IMG/VR virus record: IMGVR_UViG_3300035181_000699
Strand: one strand, 5' to 3'
Origin: an uncultured virus (IMG/VR IMGVR_UViG_3300035181_000699)
Lineage: Duplodnaviria; Heunggongvirae; Uroviricota; Caudoviricetes
Length of the DNA: 20,000 nt
Position 1 is the stretch's first letter, and every line of letters begins with the position of its first letter. The notes below the pieces were generated by a model. That model searched no databases. It was given only the letters and a program-made list of their open reading frames with translations, and was not told where the DNA came from. The translations under genes were made by a program, and so were the position numbers. Positions 1,374 through 20,000 of this stretch are shown piece by piece.

Positions 1374-2645
1374 ATGGATATGGAAAAGTTGAAGGCATTA
1401 ACTCCTCTAGAGGTGCTTATCTACTGGATGAACGAACGCCATAACATCTATTTGAGGAGGCAGGCAGGGCAACCTTGGCCTTGGACCGACGACCCAATTT
1501 TGCAGAAGCACAAGTTTGCCAACGTCTTTAGGGAGTTGGACAAGACCACTAAGTGGATGAGGGAAAACATAACCAACCCCCACATAGACGACCCGCCTGA
1601 GCTGATGATATTCAATTGTGCGTTGTTTAGGATGGTAGGAACAATTGAATACAGCCAGGCAATTGGTGGGTGGCAGGACCACTTTGACCCCGACAAGCTC
1701 ATAGCAGTAGGGGAACAGCTGCATGCGGCAGGCAAGCCAGTGTTTACTGCCGCGTATATCGTAAGTGGCACCAATTCTGGCATCGGTAACAAACTCAAAT
1801 TGGTGATTGAAGAGAACATGATGGCCCTTTGGCGCAAGCGCAAGGAGCTGGCTCAGATAGCAGCTGACACAAAGCGCATGAGCCAGGTGTTCAAAGCGCT
1901 GATTGAGCTGCCAGGATATGGCGGTTCTGGATTTATGGCGTATGAGCTGGTGACTGACCTACGCTGGACACATGTGTTCGGGCCTGAAGGCCCAACTGAC
2001 ATAATGACTTGGAGTAACCCAGGCCCCGGAGCTAGGGAGGGATTGAATCTTATTCATAATAGACCACTCAACTTTAGGCTAAGGAACGACCTGCTGCTGG
2101 AGGAGATGCAGGAGTTGCTTACTACTTTGCCTTCTCAGCTGGGCCCACACATTCCTCCATTAGAGCTGAGAGACGTGGAACACTGTTTGTGTGAGCTGTC
2201 GAAGTACTGGCGATGCCTACAGGGTCTGGGGTCTACTAGGTCTTTGTATTATAATCCTGACGTTGGGATGCCAGAACCATTTGCCCCCAAAAAGCACAGG
2301 CCAACAACCGTTAAACCAGCAGAAGAAGTAGTCAATACCAGCTTGCTGAGCCGGATTAAACTGGCTTGGAAGGTTTTGTTGGGGGAAAGCCTCCCTGCTC
2401 CGCCAGTTAAACGGGGAAGAAGAGCTAGGAAGACCGCGTTGCCTGAGCAGGAGTTCCCACAAGCGCAGCCCAATTGTGCGATTGACTTAGAGGATGTGCC
2501 CCCAGAACAGCCTGCAGATGAGTTAAAATTGACTCCTCAGCCTGCTAAGCCAAAGCGTAGCCACCACAAGAAGAAAGACCCTAATGCCCCCCCAAGACGT
2601 CGGGGCAGGCCACCTAAGCACCGGCCTCCAGAAGGGTTGGTGTGA
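1374..2645 (+). CDS. 5-hmdU DNA kinase-like (aGPT-Pplase1 / HMUDK helical family) with Lys/Pro-rich AT-hook C-terminal extension
   Basis: ERHNIY..GQPWPWTDDPIL..KFANVFRELDK, GFMAYELVTDL, NPGPGA..GL, RDVEHCLCELSKY; tail contains RRRGRPPK; AGGAG RBS. Confidence 0.85.
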   Translation: MDMEKLKALTPLEVLIYWMNERHNIYLRRQAGQPWPWTDDPILQKHKFANVFRELDKTTKWMRENITNPHIDDPPELMIFNCALFRMVGTIEYSQAIGGWQDHFDPDKLIAVGEQLHAAGKPVFTAAYIVSGTNSGIGNKLKLVIEENMMALWRKRKELAQIAADTKRMSQVFKALIELPGYGGSGFMAYELVTDLRWTHVFGPEGPTDIMTWSNPGPGAREGLNLIHNRPLNFRLRNDLLLEEMQELLTTLPSQLGPHIPPLELRDVEHCLCELSKYWRCLQGLGSTRSLYYNPDVGMPEPFAPKKHRPTTVKPAEEVVNTSLLSRIKLAWKVLLGESLPAPPVKRGRRARKTALPEQEFPQAQPNCAIDLEDVPPEQPADELKLTPQPAKPKRSHHKKKDPNAPPRRRGRPPKHRPPEGLV

Positions 2646-2706
2646 TTTGGCTGCGAGCAGTATATAAGGCGGCATATATGAAAAGCTCCGGAGAGGAGGA
2701 GAGCGA

Positions 2707-3240
2707 ATGCGAGAAGGAGACAGATACTATCGGAACTTCGGCGGCAGTTGTGAATGCGGGAGCACCGAACTGATTGTGAGCCACGGGATACTCCAATGTG
2801 CCAACTGCTGGAAACCGCTTGCTACTTCGACTGGTGGTAGGGAGAAGAGCATGAACGAAGTCAAGCGTACCGAACGTGGTTGGGCTGGACATGTCATCTG
2901 GTCAGCGAGCCGTTGCCGCTTCCGGCGGAACACTCTGTTGGAATGCGGCGACAAGCGAATCGTGGTCTCAACGGTTGGAGACTTGGAAAACGGCGAGCCG
3001 ATAGGCCATAATCGTTACTACGAGACCAAGGCATTCTGGGCCAAGAAGGACGGTGTCTACTGGGACGCTGACAAGGCGAAGGAGGTCCCTTTCGAGAGCC
3101 CGTGGTGTATCGGCACCTTATCTGGGACCTCGGATGACGAAGCTAACGATATGCACGAAGCCGTGGTGGCCGAATTGACCGAGTGGCTACGGCAAGGAGG
3201 AGAGCATGAAGCTGAAACGATGGGAAATCAGTCAGACTGA
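2707..3240 (+). CDS. Phage hypothetical protein: N-terminal CxC/CxxC module plus ERGWAGH domain (alternative start 2851)
   Basis: Strong RBS GAGGAGG before 2707; a second GGAG with in-frame ATG at 2851. Confidence 0.65.
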   Translation: MREGDRYYRNFGGSCECGSTELIVSHGILQCANCWKPLATSTGGREKSMNEVKRTERGWAGHVIWSASRCRFRRNTLLECGDKRIVVSTVGDLENGEPIGHNRYYETKAFWAKKDGVYWDADKAKEVPFESPWCIGTLSGTSDDEANDMHEAVVAELTEWLRQGGEHEAETMGNQSD

Positions 3241-3418
3241 GGGTGAAGAGGGAGAATTGACGGCCATAATGTTTTACGGCCCCTGGCGCAACGGCGTCAA
3301 TGCTGCGTTCACCATTTACCCAGGTAAGACAGCAGGGACACCGGAGTTTGTCGAATGGCTCTTGCAGAAGCTGAACGCGAAGCACAAACGCAGGGGCGGA
3401 ACTTCGTGCGCGGCCTGA
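3206..3418 (+). CDS. Hypothetical protein, 70 aa
   Basis: GGAGG RBS; overlaps the end of the upstream gene. Confidence 0.55.
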   Translation: MKLKRWEISQTEGEEGELTAIMFYGPWRNGVNAAFTIYPGKTAGTPEFVEWLLQKLNAKHKRRGGTSCAA

Positions 3419-3461
3419 TTGCTAACTGATGATGTTTGGAGCAAACCAAAAGGAGGCAGAC

Positions 3462-3761
3462 ATGTTTGTTAACACAGGTGGTGGTAGTAACTCTTCAGCA
3501 ACAGCAGTAGTACCAGAGGTCCAGCAAATCATGAAGAGGTTAGATATCGAGCTTGATGAATTAGGGAAAGCAGTAGAGGCTCTTGGTGTTCGTCTGGACG
3601 TGGTAATGACAGGACCTCTACAACCAAATGATAGTCAGCCGATTCCCGAGGCTGTTGCGCCAGCACGCTGTGCATTGGCTGCCACTTTGGAAAGACAGGT
3701 GGAGCGCGTGGCAGCGTACAGAGAAGACATAGACGCTCTTAGAAGTCGGCTTCAAATCTAA
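3462..3761 (+). CDS. Hypothetical coiled-coil protein
   Basis: AAGGAGG RBS before the ATG at 3462; heptad-like helices. Confidence 0.65.
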   Translation: MFVNTGGGSNSSATAVVPEVQQIMKRLDIELDELGKAVEALGVRLDVVMTGPLQPNDSQPIPEAVAPARCALAATLERQVERVAAYREDIDALRSRLQI

Positions 3762-3884
3762 GGCGCAGGCACTTCCCTGGCAGGACAGCCCTGCTCGGCC
3801 CAGAGAAGCTGGCGGAAGGGCAAAAAGCAGAGAATGACAGAGGCAAATCACAATAAATAGACTCGCTACATCTTGGGGGAACTG

Positions 3885-4472
3885 ATGGATTACAAAATCT
3901 TGAGCAATGCAGAAGCTGAGGCCCAGTATGCTGACTGGGCCAATATGTTTAAGGTGGACCGTCCTTTTCTGTCAGGTGCAGCTAACATTACACATAGGTT
4001 CGGTCAAGGTGAGGACTCTCTGGAGCACATAGTAATAGGTTATGGCAATAGAGTACTCAGCCTTGTTACATTTCATGTCGGACGGCGCAAGAGAGGCATA
4101 TGGGGCCGGTACTTAAATGTGTACTACGCATACACAATACCAGACTACAGGAGACTCGGTCTTGCCTCTAGTCTTATGCGGTCAGCTGAGGATATAGCTC
4201 GCAGCAAGGAAGCACACAGGATAAAGTCTATTGCAGGGTCTATCAGAGGGTTCTACTTGCATAGACACTTAGGCCATTCTATGTGGGGAGTTACTACAGA
4301 GGGCTCTATTATAGTTGACCACTACCTGGTCCCTGAGTATGACCTTCCAGGAGTGCCTCCAAATGTCTTAGGGTATGCTCCTGATACTAAGGGCACGTTG
4401 TCATACACTGAGGCAGAGAGCCTGTTCAGGGAGCACAAGGTAGGCAAGGCTTGGGCGCTCTTAGAGCAATAG
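3885..4472 (+). CDS. GNAT-family N-acetyltransferase
   Basis: Motif A: YAYTIPDYRRLGLASSLM (RRxGxA acetyl-CoA loop); motif B-like GFYLHRHLG; ATG at 3885 after GGGGGA. Confidence 0.75.
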   Translation: MDYKILSNAEAEAQYADWANMFKVDRPFLSGAANITHRFGQGEDSLEHIVIGYGNRVLSLVTFHVGRRKRGIWGRYLNVYYAYTIPDYRRLGLASSLMRSAEDIARSKEAHRIKSIAGSIRGFYLHRHLGHSMWGVTTEGSIIVDHYLVPEYDLPGVPPNVLGYAPDTKGTLSYTEAESLFREHKVGKAWALLEQ

Positions 4473-4503
4473 TACCCCCATCATACCCTACAGCCTGACT
4501 TTG

Positions 4504-4540
4504 TTTCATTGCGTCTCGAAGACGAGAGCGTGGAGTTTTT
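4504..4540 (+). terminator. Probable intrinsic terminator between convergent genes; copy A of a duplicated hairpin element
   Basis: Imperfect stem TTTCA(T)TGC(G)TCTCG-AAGA-CGAGAGCGTGGAG followed by TTTTT. Confidence 0.5.
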
Positions 4541-5171
4541 AAGCCATCCTACGTTTCAATAGGCTCTTAGCAGTGGCTATACCCTGAGCAACCTTGGTAA
4601 CTGGCTGGCTTAGCATAACAGCAATGTCTTCCGGGGACTTGCCAAGGTATAGACCCATCAATGCGCAGTCAGCAAGGAACTCATCCTCAAGCATGTTCAT
4701 TAAGGAAGTATATACAGCAGCTCCTGGGTGAGTTATAAGCTGCTGCGCTGTGCGGCCATGCCTTTCTGTTTCTTCATCATACTCCTCTTCAGGAGGAACA
4801 GAATGTAGGCTTGGGTCCAGCCCCTTCTTTGTAGCATCGAGCATATAGTGGCGGAGATTGTTGGCTAGAGCATTGCGGAAGTATGGTATGAAAACAGCTT
4901 CATCATTTTCCATATTAAACTTGTTCAGACACAATAACAATGTCAGACGTCCTTCTTGTATCAAGTCATCCTCTGTAACCCAAGGGGGGAGTTGGTGTTT
5001 GCTGAGCGTGTGGTAGACTGCTCTGTAAATCATTGCTGCCAGTAGTTCTAAGATGGAGTCGAACGCCATTGGGTTACTTTCTGGGTAGTTTCTGTATAAG
5101 AAAATGTACTGCTTGATGACGGTGCTTACTCTGCAAGCCCTTTGCCACCTGTTTATGTTAGAGACAGCCAT
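4539..5171 (-). CDS. Sigma-70 family RNA polymerase sigma factor-like protein (regions 2 and 4)
   Basis: EDDLIQEGRLTLLLCLNKFN...FIPYFRNALANNL (region 2); C-terminal HTH SPEDIAVMLSQPVTKVAQ; GGAGG RBS. Confidence 0.75.
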   Translation of the reverse strand: MAVSNINRWQRACRVSTVIKQYIFLYRNYPESNPMAFDSILELLAAMIYRAVYHTLSKHQLPPWVTEDDLIQEGRLTLLLCLNKFNMENDEAVFIPYFRNALANNLRHYMLDATKKGLDPSLHSVPPEEEYDEETERHGRTAQQLITHPGAAVYTSLMNMLEDEFLADCALMGLYLGKSPEDIAVMLSQPVTKVAQGIATAKSLLKRRMA

Positions 5172-5271
5172 ATACCCCTCCTAACAGCTATAGTATAATA
5201 CAGGTTGCACAAAAAGGTAAGTTTACTTCTATTCAACAGCGATTACTCATAGAATATATCGGAGACAATCG

Positions 5272-5619
5272 CTATAATTCTTTGTATGCAGCCTGCACCT
5301 GTTTCCTAGACTTTAGGATTTCTGCTCTAATTGCTTCGTCTCTATAGTACCAACTCCCCCTGTCTGCTTGGTACAGCTCTTTGCGCTTTTGTATTTCGTC
5401 TTCCTTTAGTCGAGTGACAAGGTTGTCTATTTCGTTCTCAGTCATCTTGGCCTTAATCAAAGGGGATATCTTCCGGTATTTACAGCACTGAATCCCATAG
5501 CAGTAGTCAAACATATAAAGCTCTCCGGAAGCCACTTTTATCTGTCTTTGTAGGCAGATACGCGGGTCTAGAGGGCTTGGGCGGTTAGCAGGGCATGGAA
5601 TAAGAATTTTAGGCTTCAT
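5272..5619 (-). CDS. Cys-rich hypothetical protein (paralog of 8119..8352)
   Basis: Pattern CP..R...P..CL..Q...C.G..CC; TAATG coupling to the upstream kinase gene. Confidence 0.65.
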   Translation of the reverse strand: MKPKILIPCPANRPSPLDPRICLQRQIKVASGELYMFDYCYGIQCCKYRKISPLIKAKMTENEIDNLVTRLKEDEIQKRKELYQADRGSWYYRDEAIRAEILKSRKQVQAAYKEL

Positions 5620-6506
5620 TAGAACTCCGGCGGTTTGTTTGAGGAGTACAAAGCCCTTGGTTTCCCTTCTCCATTCAGGACTCTTAGATACTTGTCCACC
5701 TCACAACACGCTCCTTCGATATCTCTCATCTCGAAAGCAGGTACATGTGGTTCTAGCCTGGTTACGGATGCTTTCAACAAATCCCTCATCATGTGAACAC
5801 TTTCATCTTCCGGCAGTTGAGTCTTGAGAGGGAGGCCAAAAACTCTACACAGTCCTCGCTGCGCTCCTGGGCCTGCATTTGCCCAAGTCATGATATCAGT
5901 AGCATCTCGCAGGTAGTGGGTCCACCGCAGGTCTGTAGCGACCTCGTATGCCAGAAAGCCCCCCCAGCCTGGGTATGCTGCGAGCCGTTTAGTGAAACTA
6001 CGGATGGTGTCATCTTTCCTTGGGGCAACATTACCCCTGTCAACCCACAGTTGGTTTAGTACGCTTTTGACTGTGTACGTGGGTTTGTCATTGGTAACAG
6101 CGTATTCCCGCCAGATGTCTCCACGGAGCATGTAAGCTCCAGTGTACACCTTTTCACCACGTTTCTGCCTGTCTTGCATCACTCTAACTATTGCATCTGG
6201 CTCCCATTCATCAGGAAAGTTGGTTCTCTCAACAATCTCTTGGAGGGTAGGAGGCCAGTTAATAACTCTGGCAAGACACATCATCATCCACAGGTTAGGA
6301 TGCTCTGCATAAGGCTCCCTCCAGTTGACTCTTAGCCAGGTTGTAACTTTGTCTAACTCCCTGAATACTTGACAGAATTTGTATCTTTGGAATATTGGGT
6401 CATCAGTCCAGGGCCAAGGCTGCCCGGAGCTTTTAAGTAGATGAATGCGGTGGCGCTCATTACACCAGTACCAGAACACATCCATAGGTCTCGTGGTAGT
6501 GAGCAT
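5619..6506 (-). CDS. 5-hmdU DNA kinase-like (aGPT-Pplase1), second copy
   Basis: ERHRI..GQPWPWTDDPIF..KFCQVFRELDK, VYTGAYM, GFLAYEVATDL, WANAGPGA..GL, RDIEGACCEVDKY; clearly homologous to 1374..2645. Confidence 0.85.
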   Translation of the reverse strand: MLTTTRPMDVFWYWCNERHRIHLLKSSGQPWPWTDDPIFQRYKFCQVFRELDKVTTWLRVNWREPYAEHPNLWMMMCLARVINWPPTLQEIVERTNFPDEWEPDAIVRVMQDRQKRGEKVYTGAYMLRGDIWREYAVTNDKPTYTVKSVLNQLWVDRGNVAPRKDDTIRSFTKRLAAYPGWGGFLAYEVATDLRWTHYLRDATDIMTWANAGPGAQRGLCRVFGLPLKTQLPEDESVHMMRDLLKASVTRLEPHVPAFEMRDIEGACCEVDKYLRVLNGEGKPRALYSSNKPPEF

Positions 6507-6508
6507 AA

Positions 6509-6721
6509 CTACGCCCCTTTTGATGTATTGTCTTGCTGTTCAGTTGACTTGCTTTCCTTGTTGTATGCTTCTTTTGCCTGAGCCAGTTTTTGCTTTAGCA
6601 TTTCGTTGGCTATCTTTACACAGGTGACATGCATATAGTTGCCTTGCTTGGTCTTGACTATCTGTTCTTCTGCTCCTCCCCGCTTACGAATCTTCTTACG
6701 GCACAATATACAGGTTTTCAT
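6509..6721 (-). CDS. Small putative zinc-finger protein (CxxC...HxxC)
   Basis: CILC...HVTC; AGGAGG RBS. Confidence 0.6.
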   Translation of the reverse strand: MKTCILCRKKIRKRGGAEEQIVKTKQGNYMHVTCVKIANEMLKQKLAQAKEAYNKESKSTEQQDNTSKGA

Positions 6722-6819
6722 GGTATAGCCTCCTACAGCTTAGAGACGCCACCCTTTCCTCTTGTCTATTTCTCTTGCTACTATGAAGCACCACAGAACT
6801 ACCATCACACATAGTAGAG

Positions 6820-7017
6820 TCATGGCTTCCTCTTTATCGGCGTGTCAACTCGAATCAGGCCAGTGGGTGTCACTCGCACTTCCAAAATCTGCCTATCCGT
6901 TTTGAGCGTTAAGAGCCATATATTGGGGGTGCTGGCGCTGCGCTCGACCTCAACCGGTCCCCAGACGAATCCATAGTCGGTAGCCTCCAGATAAGGCCAC
7001 TTTGCTCTCCTCATCAT
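6820..7017 (-). CDS. Hypothetical protein, 65 aa
   Basis: AGGAG RBS; tight packing in the operon. Confidence 0.55.
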   Translation of the reverse strand: MMRRAKWPYLEATDYGFVWGPVEVERSASTPNIWLLTLKTDRQILEVRVTPTGLIRVDTPIKRKP

Positions 7018-7019
7018 GG

Positions 7020-7244
7020 CTATATGCTCCTGTTTGCCTGCTTGGTTTCTATGATGATTGGCTCTCCCTTGTACTTGCTAGCGAGATAAGCACCTCGCTT
7101 CAGAAGGTCAATCACCGGTGCACCGTCAGGAGGGAGGTCTACTATCTGAGTCCTTATGCCGTATGCGCCGAGTTCGCTAGCAATTATGTGCGCAATCGTT
7201 GTTTTTCCAGAGTGAGCACCCCCTACTACAATTATCTTAAGCAT
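7020..7244 (-). CDS. Very small protein with a Walker A motif
   Basis: IIVVGGAHSGKTT; AGGAG RBS. Confidence 0.6.
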   Translation of the reverse strand: MLKIIVVGGAHSGKTTIAHIIASELGAYGIRTQIVDLPPDGAPVIDLLKRGAYLASKYKGEPIIIETKQANRSI

Positions 7245-7410
7245 TTTTGTCTCCTTTTTCCTCAGCTTTCATAATTGCTTTAGCTTGGCTGCTGGCTAGT
7301 GTAGCCCAGTTGTACACCCCCTCCCAGTCATGCATCCGAAGATACCCCTCAGCACTTTTCAGGGCCTGCTTAATGAGTTTCGCATGCTCTAGCTTTTCTT
7401 TGGCAGTCAT
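7237..7410 (-). CDS. Small helical hypothetical protein (paralog of 7905..8117)
   Basis: AGGAGGTG RBS before the ATG at 7410; DWEGVYNWA motif. Confidence 0.6.
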   Translation of the reverse strand: MTAKEKLEHAKLIKQALKSAEGYLRMHDWEGVYNWATLASSQAKAIMKAEEKGDKNA

Positions 7411-7455
7411 CTCGCACCTCCTATTCACGCTATTGCGTTTCCCTAACGTTCCGCA

Positions 7456-7908
7456 TCAGTCATCATCCAAACAAAAAAGTTCAGTCGCATCATGCGTGTC
7501 TTGTACCAAATCCTCTAACAACCCCAAAGAACGGTTATCCAACGATTCTATCCACTCCACTATTTCTTTCTTCCGTTCTTCTGACAACTTTGACTCTGGA
7601 GAAAACGAATACGGAATTAAACAAGAAGGACGCCTTTTTTCCTTACTGGGGGCTCGCGCTGCTTTGAGCATCCGCGCCAGGTTGTCGGCTGCTACGCAAG
7701 CGATATTCCAGCGTATGACTCGCCATCTATCCGGTGGGTCTATAGCCACGGCTGGTAAAGTGGCAATGCGGTCGTAGGTAGCATACATGGTTTGGTTGAA
7801 CAGCATCCTTGCCGCGTTGGGCCATTTCGCCCACTGTTTTTGCCCAACGCAGTAAAGGTTCTCTGGGCTTTCCGGTAAATCCCATTGTGTTTTCATCTTC
7901 CTCTTCAT
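7456..7908 (-). CDS. Hypothetical protein, 150 aa
   Basis: AAGGAGGTG RBS before the ATG at 7908; ATGA overlap. Confidence 0.6.
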   Translation of the reverse strand: MKRKMKTQWDLPESPENLYCVGQKQWAKWPNAARMLFNQTMYATYDRIATLPAVAIDPPDRWRVIRWNIACVAADNLARMLKAARAPSKEKRRPSCLIPYSFSPESKLSEERKKEIVEWIESLDNRSLGLLEDLVQDTHDATELFCLDDD

Positions 7909-8117
7909 CTCACACCTCCTTCTGTTCCCCTCTCTTCCCGTATCAAAAACCGTGCTCGGTTGCAAGCAAAATTCGCCCACAATATAACGCCATCCCAATC
8001 CCGTACTTTAACCCTTTCCTTCGCTATCTCCAATGCCATATTAACCCGCTTCTCTGGGGATGACTCCCGCATCACGCGCTCCAAACCTTCCTCATAACTC
8101 TCTTCGGGCACAGGCAT
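7905..8117 (-). CDS. Small helical hypothetical protein (paralog of 7237..7410)
   Basis: DWDGVILWA motif; abuts its neighbours. Confidence 0.6.
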   Translation of the reverse strand: MPVPEESYEEGLERVMRESSPEKRVNMALEIAKERVKVRDWDGVILWANFACNRARFLIREERGTEGGVR

Positions 8118-8118
8118 A

Positions 8119-8352
8119 TCACACCCCTATTGCTGGCGGAGGGTCTTTACGCTCTTCTGCTTGAAGACGCTCTGCTTCTATCCTGTAAATCGAAGCCAGC
8201 TGTTCACGTTGGCCCTGTACATAGTCGCATACAAAGTAGCAGCACCTGCTGCCACCACATGGTACTTTCTCTTTATTTTCCCATGCGCGCTGTAAGCGTA
8301 GACAGGTTTCTGGTGTGACCAATATGCGGTCATGAGGGCAAGCAAATTTCAT
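8119..8352 (-). CDS. Cys-rich hypothetical protein (paralog of 5272..5619)
   Basis: CPHDR..PETCLRLQ..CGGSRCC; TAATG coupling. Confidence 0.6.
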   Translation of the reverse strand: MKFACPHDRILVTPETCLRLQRAWENKEKVPCGGSRCCYFVCDYVQGQREQLASIYRIEAERLQAEERKDPPPAIGV

Positions 8353-8612
8353 TATTCCTTCTCCAATGGGTTCGGAAGATATTGCCAGTGGGTAGGATGG
8401 TAGTCATCATCAGCCCCACAGTTGTCTACCTCCCAGCGCTGTGTTTCTTTGTTCCAGTAGCAGTCAGCAAAAGAATAGCAGCGCGCCCATACCCAGCCTT
8501 CACCATCATCTGTTCTGCACCCGATGATTGGCTCTTCGGAGTCAGGCAGCAACAGCCAGACGGGCCGCTCCATAGGAGGCAGTTCGTCTTCTACTTTCAC
8601 CCACTCGCTCAT
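8352..8612 (-). CDS. DUF551-like phage protein
   Basis: Termini MSEWVKVEDELP and PTHWQYLP are typical of this family; start at 8612 after AGGTGA. Confidence 0.7.
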   Translation of the reverse strand: MSEWVKVEDELPPMERPVWLLLPDSEEPIIGCRTDDGEGWVWARCYSFADCYWNKETQRWEVDNCGADDDYHPTHWQYLPNPLEKE

Positions 8613-8616
8613 GGTT

Positions 8617-8895
8617 TCACCTGCACCAATCTCGTCGCTCACTTCGAGCTGCATACCACGCCCATTCCAACAATTGCTCTGCTTCAGCAGGGTTGCCAAG
8701 GGGTGTCAGGCTTCTCACTATGCCAAAGCCATTATCGTAACGCAACTGGGCTGCAACGCATACCAAGTTAGCCAAGCCGTACTTTTTTCGCACCACCTCC
8801 AAGTCGGTTCTAAGGTCTGCGAGTTCAGCGTTGAAGGCATCTTCGCTACTCGGGCGGCCCGTGAGCCAACAACACACCTGCTTTTTACTGTCCAT
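8617..8895 (-). CDS. Hypothetical protein, 92 aa
   Basis: GGAGGAGG RBS. Confidence 0.6.
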   Translation of the reverse strand: MDSKKQVCCWLTGRPSSEDAFNAELADLRTDLEVVRKKYGLANLVCVAAQLRYDNGFGIVRSLTPLGNPAEAEQLLEWAWYAARSERRDWCR

Positions 8896-9064
8896 CTTTA
8901 TCCTCCTCCTTTAGAGGATACCCTTGTGTCCACTCAATAAACCATGCCCACATAAGGAACAGCAGAGACGCATCCCAGAAGCCTGCTGACGCAGTCCCTA
9001 TGGAAGCCATTGCTAGGAAGAAAACTATGACGGTGGTAAAGAACTTAGCGACTTTGGGTTTCAT
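8885..9064 (-). CDS. Small membrane protein, 59 aa (absent from the ORF track)
   Basis: Manual translation MKPKVAKFFTTVIVFFLAMASIGTASAGFWDASLLFLMWAWFIEWTQGYPLKEEDKDGQ; GAGGAGG RBS; ATGA overlap. Confidence 0.6.
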   Translation of the reverse strand: MKPKVAKFFTTVIVFFLAMASIGTASAGFWDASLLFLMWAWFIEWTQGYPLKEEDKDGQ

Positions 9065-9279
9065 CTGGGTCCTCCTCTTCTCAACTTGGAAAGCACCCTT
9101 GACAAATCCATAGAAGCTCTTTTGACAGCTGCGGTCTCAACCCCGCCAAAGTTCATCACATCATCGTATGCTGTCTTACCAAGATGGTTGCGAACGCTCT
9201 TTAATCCTTCAAGTTCTTTGACCCTAGCTAAGAACCTTAGTGTTTCTTGCTTTGCTTCTTTCAAGAGTTTTTCTTCCAT
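9061..9279 (-). CDS. Hypothetical phage protein, 72 aa
   Basis: AAGGAG RBS before the ATG at 9279. Confidence 0.6.
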   Translation of the reverse strand: MEEKLLKEAKQETLRFLARVKELEGLKSVRNHLGKTAYDDVMNFGGVETAAVKRASMDLSRVLSKLRRGGPR

Positions 9280-9581
9280 CTGTCGTTCTCCTTGGTAGTT
9301 TCTTCTACAATAATTAACCCATTTTCTCTTTTGATTACACGTATCCAAGGCCCAGGAGTTGGGTCAATGGCTAGTCTCCTAAACAGTTCCCCACTGAATC
9401 TATGACCAAAAATAGTAAACACATCATTCATTGGGTTGTATACATTAGCAGCCATCATACTTAGCATGGTTCCTGGCATCAATATGAAGAAGGCCCATCT
9501 AACCCACCAAGGCATATAACAGCCTTCTGGGGTTTTGCTTAGGCTCTTGATGAAGTAAGCCAACTTGATATTCCAATTCAT
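9261..9581 (-). CDS. Hypothetical protein, possibly with one TM segment
   Basis: AAGGAGG RBS; directly downstream of a promoter motif. Confidence 0.65.
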   Translation of the reverse strand: MNWNIKLAYFIKSLSKTPEGCYMPWWVRWAFFILMPGTMLSMMAANVYNPMNDVFTIFGHRFSGELFRRLAIDPTPGPWIRVIKRENGLIIVEETTKENDRWKKNS

Positions 9582-9602
9582 GTTTGACCTCCTTATCTCT
9601 AT

Positions 9603-9630
9603 TATTCAGCTTAACATTAGAAAAATAAAG
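9603..9630 (-). promoter_or_regulatory. Putative phage promoter CTTTA-N15-GCTGAATA
   Basis: Intergenic; matches the other copies in sequence and spacing. Confidence 0.6.
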
Positions 9631-9631
9631 A

Positions 9632-11512
9632 CTACAGCAATCCTCTCTTAACAACTGGGCCCAGGCCTACAAGCACTCCTTTGTCCATCATAGCGTTCTG
9701 AGCTTCTTCTCTGGGCCATAACCAAGGCTTCTCAGCATTGGGCCACAGCTCCCCTAGATACTCTGGAGGGAAGCAGGCCTTCCTCATCTGCCAAAGCACT
9801 TCCCAGTCAACTCCAACAGTTGACTCTTTATGGTCTTCTTGTATGTGGCATATTTCTTCAGCCAGCCGGTCAATGTAGTAGCCAATGTACCTGTGCCTAC
9901 GATACAGACCTTTGTAGGCACAAAGCGCAGATTCTAACAACCAGTAATCAACAGCTATGTGCGGGAATGTGGCTTTGACTAAATGGTACAGTTCGTCAAG
10001 GTCAGTGTTTAGTTCCTTGAGTATGTCCTTCGTCATCTTGGCATCAACATATTGGTCTTTGCTAACAGCGTAGCACAGCCCGTTCCTACTGCTGAGGGCA
10101 TCGGGTAGGAACATGGTGTCTGCGAGTATTGGCATGCCCATGCATCTGTGTAGAGTTTCAGTGTAGTAGAAGGCACTGTATCGGCCAAACCTGTCAAACT
10201 TCATAACTTCTTTCCAGACATTGTGGAAGTTGACGACAGGGTCTTCAGAGGTCAATAACTCTGCAAACCATTCTTCTTGGGTGCGCTGGCCTATGGCTGC
10301 CTTGTAGGATACAAACATGTCAACCAAATGCCCTTTGCAGTATCTGCGGTCGGTTTCATACCGCAGTTCTCGCCAATGCTGTTTGTGCCACCGCTCAAGT
10401 CTCCCTAAATCAACCTTCTCAAACTCAGGGAATTCTTGCATAAACCAAAAGAGGCTACCAATTTGGTAGAACACCCCATACAACCAACAGACCCAATACT
10501 CCTGTTCCTTGCTGAGTTCATATCTGCGGAACAGATAGTTGATGGCAGGGTATGCTGGGTCAACGTCCCAGGTGACAGTTACAGCCGCATAGTAAAGCAG
10601 GAAAGCCTTCAGCCTGTTTTCTAATTTGCGGAAGTCAAGATGCTGTGCGACAGGAAAGTCTAGCCTGGGGTCAGACTGTACAGCTTCAGGTTGGAGTATT
10701 TCAGGGAATACAAGCTGAGGGCGCTGGAATCTGAATTCTTTGGGGTATTCAAAGGACAAAGGGTATGTATTGTTGGGGTTCTGAACGTCTATGATTGTAT
10801 ATGGGGGTACTTCCTGGTGCTCAATAGTCATTTGCATCCGCTCAGCTACCCTGTTGATGATGTCCTCTGTGCTAGCAAACCCTTTGACACCTAGCGAGGC
10901 AATGGAGAACAGCCACAGAGGCCTGATATGGTCTCTGACGCATAACATAGGCAGCCAACGCCCCATTATGCCTAGAGCGAAGACGGGAGGTTCAATCCCG
11001 TGGATACGGTGCAGTGCTTTGCCAAGAGCATTAGCCAGTGTGGCAGAGCTGCGGTCTTCAAGAGGGTCCTCTTTGATTGCTCTAAGCACGTGCTGTAGAA
11101 TCACTTCAGAATCATTGTAGGAATTGGTCTTGATGCCATACTGGTTCTCGAATTCTTCCTTAGTGCCCATGGACACAAGTCCATTATGTACCAAGGAAAC
11201 TTCTTCTGCCTCAAGTGGCTGGTTATTGGCATTGTCATCCCAGTCCCCGCTGGTAGAGTACCGGCAGTGCCCCAGGACTCGAACGTTGACCCCACCTATG
11301 GGCACTGACGTGTTGTACATATTGGTCTTGACAAATTCTGTAGCAGGCACAGGATGTTTGACAGTCACCAGGTTAGGCACCATGCCACTGCTCCAGGTCA
11401 CACCAGTGGCATGCCTCCCCCTGACTTGGCTCTCAAGCAATAGAGCTTCAGTCAGCTTAGCATGATTTTCGTTGAATTCTCCTTCAACTACAAACCCAAA
11501 TATGCCGCACAT
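9632..11512 (-). CDS. Fusion of class II (Ntn) glutamine amidotransferase and amino acid:DNA transferase (aGPT-Pplase2/AADT) domain
   Basis: N-terminal: MCGIFG (Cys nucleophile), RGRHATG, LGHCRYST, NNQPL, VHNG, DSEVI, RD..RPL. C-terminal: DVDPAY, ETDRRYCKG, FGRYSAFYYTE, LESALCAYK, RYIGYYIDR. AAGGAGG RBS. Confidence 0.8.
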   Translation of the reverse strand: MCGIFGFVVEGEFNENHAKLTEALLLESQVRGRHATGVTWSSGMVPNLVTVKHPVPATEFVKTNMYNTSVPIGGVNVRVLGHCRYSTSGDWDDNANNQPLEAEEVSLVHNGLVSMGTKEEFENQYGIKTNSYNDSEVILQHVLRAIKEDPLEDRSSATLANALGKALHRIHGIEPPVFALGIMGRWLPMLCVRDHIRPLWLFSIASLGVKGFASTEDIINRVAERMQMTIEHQEVPPYTIIDVQNPNNTYPLSFEYPKEFRFQRPQLVFPEILQPEAVQSDPRLDFPVAQHLDFRKLENRLKAFLLYYAAVTVTWDVDPAYPAINYLFRRYELSKEQEYWVCWLYGVFYQIGSLFWFMQEFPEFEKVDLGRLERWHKQHWRELRYETDRRYCKGHLVDMFVSYKAAIGQRTQEEWFAELLTSEDPVVNFHNVWKEVMKFDRFGRYSAFYYTETLHRCMGMPILADTMFLPDALSSRNGLCYAVSKDQYVDAKMTKDILKELNTDLDELYHLVKATFPHIAVDYWLLESALCAYKGLYRRHRYIGYYIDRLAEEICHIQEDHKESTVGVDWEVLWQMRKACFPPEYLGELWPNAEKPWLWPREEAQNAMMDKGVLVGLGPVVKRGLL

Positions 11513-18137: not shown

Positions 18138-18779
18138 TCAATGTGCCTCAGCGAACTGCCTGAGCTTCTGCGTCAGCCCGTTCAGTGCCTGGTTCACGGC
18201 AGCAGGAGTCACGTGCAAGGCGGCAGCGATTGCCCGCTGGGATGGCTTCACCGAGCGCTCTGTCTGCCCTTTTTCTGCGTTTTCGTGGCCGAGACGGATG
18301 GCCTGCCGATAGTGCTCCTGCCCATACAGGATCTCCATCAAGACCCTTTTCTCCAGCCCACTGCAAATTTCTGCCAGGTGCGCGTATGCTTCCTGCAAGT
18401 AGATATCCTCGTCAAAGGTCACATTGTATGATGCCTCGACGGGCTCCTCCTCATCCTCGTCAGGAGTCATAGACACCAAGTCACTGACCCGCTTTTGCGC
18501 GTAGTGCGCTTGGAGGGCCAGACTGACATCCCCGTACAAGCACTTCAGGACAATGTTCTTGAGATGCTGACGGGACTCCACTTTGTCCTTGTATCGTGTG
18601 TATGCCTGGAACGCTGAGAGAAGCATTTCCTGGTTGGAGTCTTCGTCACCACTGTACAGCCAAGAGTATTTCCTGGAGAGGTGGTGGGTCAGGGGCTTCA
18701 GCTCTGCCTCCAGTTCCTCCCATGTCTGTACAGGTCGAAGTTCCTGGTTGCCATTGGTGGTCCCATTTTGCTCGGTCAT
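18138..18779 (-). CDS. Second sigma-70 family factor-like protein (SigH/ECF-like size)
   Basis: Region 2-like LSRKY..DEDSNQEMLLSAFQAYTRY; region 4-like SGLEKRVL..SQRAIAAALHVTPAAVNQALNGLTQKLR. Confidence 0.7.
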   Translation of the reverse strand: MTEQNGTTNGNQELRPVQTWEELEAELKPLTHHLSRKYSWLYSGDEDSNQEMLLSAFQAYTRYKDKVESRQHLKNIVLKCLYGDVSLALQAHYAQKRVSDLVSMTPDEDEEEPVEASYNVTFDEDIYLQEAYAHLAEICSGLEKRVLMEILYGQEHYRQAIRLGHENAEKGQTERSVKPSQRAIAAALHVTPAAVNQALNGLTQKLRQFAEAH

Positions 18780-19873: not shown

Positions 19874-20000
19874 CTTACGGCTCACGCCTTACGGCTCACG
19901 CCTTACGGCTCACGCCTTACGGCTCACGCCTTACGGCTCACGCCTTACGGCTCACGCCTTACGGCTCACGCCTTACGGCTCACGCCTTACGGCTCACGCC
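19874..20000. repeat. Perfect 14-bp tandem array (CTTACGGCTCACGC) x9, running off the window
   Basis: 127 bp = 9 full units + 1 base; the unit consists of two related 7-mers, CTTACGG and CTCACGC. Confidence 0.97.

Follow-up and report, generated by a model that had tools for sequence, protein, structure and literature searches.

A glutaminase–AADT fusion, a proposed ammonia-dependent aminotransferase, in a dispersed thymidine hypermodification pathway of an uncultured phage

A 20,000-bp stretch of DNA from an uncultured virus of the Caudoviricetes (IMG/VR IMGVR_UViG_3300035181_000699), hereafter the window, encodes a fusion of a glutamine amidotransferase (GATase) with an AADT-family transferase, which we propose to be the aminating enzyme of a real, dispersed thymidine (T) hypermodification pathway. 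The window is the right 20 kb (C1:13672-33671) of a 33,685-bp virus record, G000, with an estimated completeness of 43%. The explanation that we favor, each chemical step of which we infer, is that ammonia from glutamine aminates the phosphorylated form (5-PmdU) of 5-hydroxymethyldeoxyuridine (5-hmdU) and that a GNAT-family enzyme then acetylates the amine; taken whole, it is reasonably probable. Amination by what would be a new donor chemistry is likely, and we lean slightly toward 5-acetylaminomethyl-dU as the acetylated end product. The modified base may be protective, and the original prediction named restriction and CRISPR as what it would probably guard against. The original prediction for the window described four open reading frames (ORFs), namely two 5-hmdU kinases, the fusion, and a GNAT, scattered over both strands and not in one operon. 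ORF calling recovered all four as described, interspersed with unrelated ORFs on both strands, and Pfam matches identified the fusion and the GNAT (Table 1).

The N-terminal part of the fusion (approximately residues 2–255) is a class II, N-terminal nucleophile (Ntn) glutamine amidotransferase containing Cys2, Arg31, Arg84-Tyr85, Asn110-Gly111, and Asp134, and it thus has the cysteine at residue 2, the equivalents of Arg26, Arg73, Asn98-Gly99, and Asp123, and the Ntn fold that define the class. All 65 aligned fusions keep Arg84, Asn110, Gly111, and Asp134, and Cys2 is present in each of the 58 sequences whose alignment row extends to that position. By both sequence and fold, this domain best matched PurF and GlmS, PurF being the closest; the AlphaFold2 model of the fusion (pLDDT 94, pTM 0.92) aligned by VIA-align to PurF (8w7d) with a Z of 27.4 and a root-mean-square deviation (rmsd) of 2.7 over 239 residues. 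The C-terminal part (approximately residues 290–590) is an aGPT-Pplase2/AADT domain with Asp318, metal-binding Glu527-Ser528, catalytic Cys531, and the fold of PaMx11 gp46 (8z2m; Z 18.3, rmsd 3.4, 253 aligned residues). Among the matches listed by Foldseek there were glutaminases only, gp46 surfacing through VIA-align alone, and the AADT profile had no match among PDB sequences. Glu527 and Cys531 align with the corresponding Glu and Cys of M6 gp51 and are invariant, and 64 of the 79 matches to the fusion were near-full-length fused proteins.

Donor choice in the AADT family is set by a few pocket residues, according to the available portions of PMC11472151 and PMC13458397. These describe glycine-binding lysines in PaMx11 (K150) and YuA (K159 and K248), and the latter source describes, for diamine transferases of the 15599 and phiW-14 type, a Gly directly after the catalytic Cys together with His and Asp pocket residues. 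The fusion lacks both signatures: the positions aligned with the lysines of the glycine:DNA transferases are Tyr449 and Ala532, the residue after the catalytic Cys is Ala, and the motif is unlike that of 15599. All 60 split AADTs have Ala at this position, and 64 of 65 fusions have Ala or Ser. A 42-row AADT tree, which omitted clusters with domains shorter than 200 aa, set the glycine and diamine enzymes apart (99/99).

At one locus where the two domains are separate proteins, they are predicted to bind each other. The split GATase and AADT of locus L063 gave a predicted-complex score of 0.88, compared with 0.01 for the best control, with 100% contact agreement between runs and a partner pLDDT of at least 89; the mark that was applied is reached by 116 of 157 solved pairs and 2 of 215 mismatched pairs. 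Because the two proteins correspond to parts of a single fused gene at other loci, a passing score was likely from the start, and the informative part is the surface used. In the predicted complex, the interface on the glutaminase lies on the R-loop and the Q-loop, including Arg30 and Tyr77, and its residues are conserved. Arg30 and Tyr77 are the equivalents of GlmS Arg26 and Trp74, which couple the active sites and open the ammonia channel in the account available in PMC7000685. The model supports binding of the AADT via the ammonia-exit face of the glutaminase.

The pairing recurs across phage loci. From 162 AADT loci we obtained 42 clusters at 70% identity, of which 41 were counted after Det7, a ViI-type phage with no GATase anywhere in its genome, was set aside; in the genome_contigs set the analysis took in L072–L076 of 80 loci and in the metagenome set L152–L170 of 80, the remainder of these two sets matching the glutaminase part alone, with L070 and L071 omitted. 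GATase was present in 38 of the 41 clusters (in 7 by fusion, in 37 at no more than 500 bp, and in all 38 either fused or at no more than 3 kb), counts with an upward bias that is taken up below. Two of the three clusters lacking it were cut at contig edges, one of those genomes having a GATase on another contig; the third is L073. When the best 80 of 575 loci from a rescan with AADT-only patterns were examined, GATase lay within 413 bp in 79, and the one miss was cut at the contig start. The 38 GATase clusters encode a kinase in 32 cases, thymidylate synthase (TS) family proteins in 11, TET in 19, and TS and TET together in none; a GNAT accompanies 20 (19 of them within 1.8 kb), an amidoligase 9, and neither of these 12.

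Tailoring enzymes were not detected, in agreement with the original prediction, which saw no pyridoxal phosphate (PLP), radical S-adenosylmethionine (SAM), or flavin tailoring enzyme in the window. Hidden Markov models built from PaMx11 gp47 (flavoenzyme), M6 gp52 (PLP), and M6 gp53 (radical SAM), which have low sensitivity, found nothing in the contig. A gp47-type lyase dependent on flavin adenine dinucleotide was found neither in the 43% complete G000 contig nor in the overlapping fragment L236 (below) and is absent in all three complete relatives, which also lack a DAO-family flavoenzyme, a PALP enzyme, and an amidoligase; these whole-genome family searches covered four of the five candidate genomes, with L153 omitted. 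Other genes accompany GATase-AADT elsewhere. In L009, L032, L044, L061, and L062, amidoligase_2 and a low-molecular-weight phosphatase-like domain occur together beside the pair, and in L062 the kinase and the phosphatase-like domain form one fused protein. An uncharacterized radical-SAM family of ~420 aa, with no match to the M6 gp53 model, lies near the pair in six clusters (L032, L034, L036, L068, L161, and L310). The gene between TET and GATase-AADT at L162:8470-9447 encodes a C5 cytosine methyltransferase, a hint that the module might act on 5-hydroxymethylcytosine there.

Of 60 pattern matches, 6 proved to belong to the GNAT family of the window, and all six loci lie inside T-hypermodification clusters. 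Three were already in the query alignment, beside GATase-AADT, and three are new: L316 (GATase, GNAT, AADT, kinase, Pplase1, TS), L317 (ParB, TET, GNAT, then the contig is cut), and L313 (gp46-like AADT, GNAT, gp47-like flavoenzyme, kinase, Pplase1, TS). L313 is a PaMx11-type cluster (gp46-like, 44%; gp47-like, 35%) in which the acetyltransferase slot is filled by the window GNAT family, its GNAT being 44% identical to that of the window over 95 aa. The co-occurrence of this GNAT with GATase and AADT, proposed as a check in the original prediction, was therefore found at other loci. The window GNAT has no BLAST match to PaMx11 gp48, to which it is linked by context and not as a sequence orthologue, and no match in cultured phages; a word-index search returned four close homologs only, and an identical GNAT is encoded on a 77.9-kb contig. 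A second GNAT family adjoining GATase-AADT is related to gp48 (E 2e-10). The substrate of the PaMx11 GNAT is only the free amine produced by gp47, and because one GNAT family serves both layouts and the PaMx11 GNAT needs a free amine, the same amine intermediate is suggested in both. Just upstream of the window GNAT, one contig from run X4 skips 1,198 bp (positions 2653–3852) and further loose ends occur, giving this segment the look of a variable cassette.

The remaining two ORFs, described as 5-hmdU kinases in the original prediction, are aGPT-Pplase1 proteins with an AADT/glycosylase-like fold and are not kinases. Neither contains a Walker A motif, which is present in M6 gp54, PaMx11 gp49, SP10 gp186, and a P-loop protein encoded in G000 outside the window (Table 1), the true kinase. 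They match M6 gp55, PaMx11 gp50, and the C-terminal half of SP10 gp186, and not the kinases; the shorter protein shows 42% to gp55 and 35% to gp50. Membership of aGPT-Pplase clade 1 is indicated by a full-length PF18723 profile match, a helix-hairpin-helix (HhH)–type helical fold, and a conserved Cys-Glu. The model of the shorter protein (pLDDT 91.9) is all-helical, and its best fold match was PaMx11 gp46 (8z2m; rmsd 4.2, 218 aligned residues) at a Z of 10.3, which is within the range common among helical proteins, followed by HhH glycosylases; no P-loop fold was among its 50 VIA-align rows. Its Cys268-Glu269 and Lys272 are invariant and form a motif weakly like the AADT active site, and a comparison of the Pplase1 and AADT profiles was weak (43% probability). 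The longer protein, 39% identical to the shorter, carries the motif EHCLCELSK and a 128-aa Pro/Lys/Arg-rich tail (positions 2260–2645) with an RRGRP motif reminiscent of an AT-hook.

Published work points the same way: in the portions available of PMC8989533, all kinases in Table 1 of Lee et al. are P-loop proteins, the SP10 kinase domain is active alone, and glycinyl-T formation does not require M6 gp55; Table 3 of Lee 2018, as available, lists gp72, gp186C, and gp160 as Pplase1. The Pfam name of PF18723, "HMUDK_hel," probably misled the original prediction, and the four-gene reconstitution proposed there should fail because the kinase is not among the four.

Pplase1 follows the source of 5-hmdU. 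Nine of the 11 TS clusters contain it and none of the 19 TET clusters does (nominal p 4e-6, for clusters that are not independent and include some short flanks), and in the best 80 of 576 loci from a separate Pplase1 scan, TS was present in 77 (13 of 15 clusters) and TET in none. TS-route phages must turn leftover 5-hmdU into T before packaging, whereas TET-route phages need not. Because Pplase1 tracks the TS route and never TET, we propose it for this step, and the correlation supplies a candidate for a conversion that virion compositions require. That Pplase1 converts the remaining 5-hmdU to thymine at the polymer level is a tentative suggestion; a function as a second transferase, which SP10 would seem to require, or as a reader or repair protein, is about as likely. 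In the L325 cluster (65 loci), Pplase1 and TS occur without a kinase or AADT in the available flanks; Pplase1 may function in their absence, or their genes are located elsewhere in those genomes.

The original prediction placed the enzymes upstream of 5-hmdU beyond the window. Searches of G000 for TS, TET, and dCMP deaminase found none, which at 43% completeness, and with a TET control that matched nowhere, is not evidence of absence, and a six-frame scan for short TS or deaminase motifs gave noise only. A second IMG/VR locus, L236, regarded as a contig of the same phage, overlaps the left end of G000 at 99.9% over 2,552 bp and at 100% over C1:1-127. On L236, C1 is seen to start within an HD nucleotidase gene that is preceded by a 357-aa TS-family gene, whose product is 30% identical to SP10 gp188 (annotated as dUMP hydroxymethylase) and to PaMx11 gp51, with the same catalytic motifs as these two proteins. 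By this likeness a 5-hmdU route would be present, with the TS-like protein probably a hydroxymethylase rather than a methylase. Of the two enzymes to be sought, a dUMP hydroxymethylase-like gene was thus located, and a dCMP deaminase was found in neither fragment. Between the two matches to G000, L236 carries an extra gene of ~630 bp absent from G000, an RCC1-repeat ORF (L236:9411-9959) whose ends share a short repeated sequence. About 6.5 kb upstream of the TS-like gene lies a GT-B glycosyltransferase-like ORF (L236:2-1051; PF00534, E 2e-4, below the cut-off), whose product might make an additional modification, of DNA or of the surface.

In the pathway that we propose, a PolA fused to uracil-DNA glycosylase (UDG), together with the products of the dUMP hydroxymethylase-like and HD nucleotidase genes that lie just past the left end of the contig, would let the phage replicate with 5-hmdUTP, and the P-loop kinase would phosphorylate some of the 5-hmdU in DNA to 5-PmdU. 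Cys531 of the AADT would add to C6 and the phosphate would leave, producing an exocyclic methylene, a mechanism of Cys addition and phosphate loss that is experimentally supported for M6 gp51 and PaMx11 gp46. Cys2 of the glutaminase would hydrolyze glutamine, and NH3 would cross the domain interface to yield 5-aminomethyl-dU in one step, a shorter route without glycine or a flavoenzyme. The GNAT would then N-acetylate this to 5-acetylaminomethyl-dU; in relatives that lack a GNAT, the free amine would be the end point. The two aGPT-Pplase1 proteins would act otherwise on 5-hmdU or 5-PmdU, possibly restoring remaining sites to thymine. The order of phosphorylation, GATase-AADT amination, and GNAT acetylation given in the original prediction is supported, and the two of its refuting conditions that were checked, a genome with no route to 5-hmdU and a GNAT that does not co-occur with the fusion, both spoke for it; its kinase step, assigned to the wrong genes, is moved to the P-loop protein. 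A broader composite, in which GATase-AADT is a glutamine-dependent, ammonia-channeling aminotransferase acting on a DNA base and the core of a widespread uncultured-phage module whose product, 5-aminomethyl-dU, serves GNATs or amidoligases as the site to acylate, with Pplase1 as a 5-hmdU-to-thymine enzyme, is rather doubtful as a whole.

Several observations weigh against the pathway. The fusion was found in none of 50,697 cultured phage records at 80% coverage. The glutaminase fold also fits EgtC, an amide hydrolase, at a Z of 21.4 (27.4 for PurF), and the ViI-type AADT of Det7 nests within the GATase-linked group, on a long and unsure branch. L073, whose AADT belongs to that group, has no GATase on its contig and no close homolog of one in its metagenome-assembled genome, and the co-occurrence counts are biased upward, the first locus searches having partly used a GATase motif and the rescan being the best 80 of 575. 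For acetylation, the GNAT lies 5.2 kb from the fusion on the opposite strand, no GNAT was seen in the flanks of 18 of the 38 GATase clusters, and the complete relative G009 has none genome-wide. The dCMP deaminase missing from the two fragments is present in two of three complete relatives.

The fit to EgtC allows a two-step reaction on DNA, in which glutamine, or some other donor bearing an amide, is first attached whole by the AADT, and its amide is afterward hydrolyzed by the Ntn domain to leave 5-aminomethyl-dU or α-glutamylthymidine. Known AADTs do transfer whole amino acids or amines, but the sequence matches of the domain are glutaminases of the PurF/GlmS/AsnB type, the predicted interface covers the glutaminase channel face, the known carboxylate-binding lysines are missing, and the GNAT partners imply a free primary amine, and we consider this route unlikely. 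It is quite unlikely that amination is correctly assigned while the GNAT stands outside the pathway or a different acyl group is added, the virion base then being 5-aminomethyl-dU or another N-acyl base. The distance and strand of the GNAT, the lack of a direct match to gp48, the complete relative devoid of any GNAT, and the amidoligases beside the pair in 9 of 38 clusters would fit this; against it, all six confirmed loci of the family belong to T-modification clusters, among them L313, with the GNAT in the gp48 slot, and L316, with the GNAT in the gap between GATase and AADT.

The same amidoligases, and the fact that the closest cultured AADTs are ViI-type (~25–27%), could indicate a different small donor for the AADT, such as a hydroxyl (ViI gp247 takes serine), with ammonia from the GATase feeding a separate amidation such as that of an amidoligase. 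This is improbable given that no amidoligase occurs in the three complete relatives or the L236 fragment and that GATase is fused to AADT in seven clusters and predicted to dock when split. Hardly credible is a return to the two PF18723 proteins as the 5-hmdU kinases: their Pfam name and the fusion of the domain to a kinase in SP10 gp186 would suggest it, but the absent Walker A, the all-helical model, the P-loop nature of the kinases of Lee et al., the activity of the SP10 kinase domain alone and the dispensability of gp55 (PMC8989533, as available), and the genuine kinase on the contig all oppose it.

Table 1. Pathway ORFs in the window (window coordinates) and the kinase elsewhere in G000 (C1 coordinates)
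Feature	Position	Strand	Profile match or similarity
GATase-AADT fusion, 626 aa; proposed 5-PmdU aminotransferase	9632-11512	-	Pfam GATase_6 + ADDT
GNAT, 195 aa (ATG 3885; upstream TTG 3873); proposed 5-aminomethyl-dU N-acetyltransferase	3885-4472 (from TTG, 3873-4472)	+	PF00583, E 3e-7
aGPT-Pplase1, 295 aa; non-kinase	5619-6506	-	PF18723, E 3e-50
Second aGPT-Pplase1 paralogue, 423 aa; non-kinase	1374-2645	+	PF18723, E 6e-52, aa 13-281
P-loop kinase, outside the window, directly after the polymerase gene	C1:4114-4692		PF18748, E 2.5e-13; 32% to M6 gp54

The window shows no sign of being a chimera: contigs from two read runs span 30 of 30 window bins at fairly even depth. At least 97% of sampled words were present in four of five listed runs, from sediment and microbial-mat metagenomes, three of which are possible sources, run X1 among the possible sources; no RNA data set was listed as containing the sequence. 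To the left of the window, G000 encodes a DNA methyltransferase, the UDG-fused PolA, the P-loop kinase, and gp32-like, RecA, exonuclease, and SbcCD-like proteins. The segment between the HD gene and the polymerase (C1:118-1270) contains a gene for an N6/N4 DNA methyltransferase, together with an ORF of 164 aa that lacks a Pfam match and is also present in the relative L003. GATC is strongly avoided, with 4 sites in the 33.7 kb of G000 (8 vs. ~146 expected on both strands) and none in the 12.5 kb of L236, suggesting a GATC-directed host system outside the cover of the modification. Two ORFs of ~210 aa in the window (4539–5171 and, on the minus strand, 18138–18779) have weak matches to sigma-70 region 2 or helix-turn-helix domains and are possibly phage sigma factors. 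At the contig end (19875–20000), about nine copies of a 14-bp tandem repeat follow C-rich runs, and run contigs diverge at 19987, so that part of the repeat may be an assembly-end artefact. A promoter scan (20 sites vs. 11.9 ± 3.5 expected) and terminators, at background level, were uninformative.

GATases beside AADTs have been noted with no assigned reaction in the available parts of PMC8989533, PMC13229309, and bioRxiv 2025.08.14.668559; the words "ammonia" and "aminomethyl" do not occur in the text or supplements of the PNAS T-dioxygenase paper. We found no paper on a GATase-AADT fusion or direct amination in a search that did not reach figures, bioRxiv supplements, and most subscription papers. 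If correct, the proposal would assign a reaction to the GATases that appear in two papers, with no function given, beside thymidine hypermodification genes, add glutamine ammonia to the known AADT donors glycine, serine, and diamines, and provide a single polypeptide that places a primary amine on 5-hmdU sites, a simple labeling reagent. It also corrects a trap of nomenclature, the PF18723 family not being a kinase.

The closest known system is the PaMx11 pathway to 5-acetylaminomethyl-dU, which comprises the gp49 kinase, gp46 glycine AADT, gp47 flavoenzyme, gp48 GNAT, gp50 Pplase1, and gp51 TS-like protein (PMC8989533 and PMC11472151, as available). The two have in common a TS-like hydroxymethylase, HD nucleotidase, P-loop kinase, the catalytic Glu/Cys and fold of the AADT, GNAT, Pplase1, and the predicted end product. 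They differ in the flavoenzyme, seen only in PaMx11 (none was found here, in a record that is 43% complete), and in AADTs that are ~23% identical, the glycine lysines being missing here; in addition, the phage described here has an AADT joined to a class II glutaminase, a GNAT from a different family, a dispersed gene layout, and two Pplase1 paralogues. ParB-dependent T-dioxygenase clusters carry a GATase, P-loop kinase, and AADT (available parts of PMC13229309, bioRxiv 2025.08.14.668559, and the metavirome section of Lee et al.), and the GATase and AADT pair is shared, as adjacent genes, by the 19 TET-type clusters analyzed here; in those systems, as far as these sources extend, TET produces 5-hmdU once replication is over, most of the genes are separate, and there is no Pplase1.

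Within the AADT family, the donor of ViI gp247 is serine and those of the phiW-14 gp109 and SH-Ab 15599 DADT enzymes are diamines, in the portions available of PMC13458397. These proteins share family and mechanism with the fusion, the ViI-type being its nearest cultured relatives, but the residue after the catalytic Cys is Trp in Det7 175, Gly in 15599, and Ala or Ser here, and Det7 has no GATase. For an amidotransferase in phage DNA base modification there is a precedent in phage Gat-QueC (PMC6884629, as available). In PurF and GlmS, as in the fusion, an Ntn glutaminase with an N-terminal Cys is joined to a synthase domain. PurF swaps a phosphate-type leaving group for ammonia. The acceptor of the fusion, unlike those of PurF and GlmS, would be a base within DNA, activated by Michael addition of Cys in an HhH-type domain.

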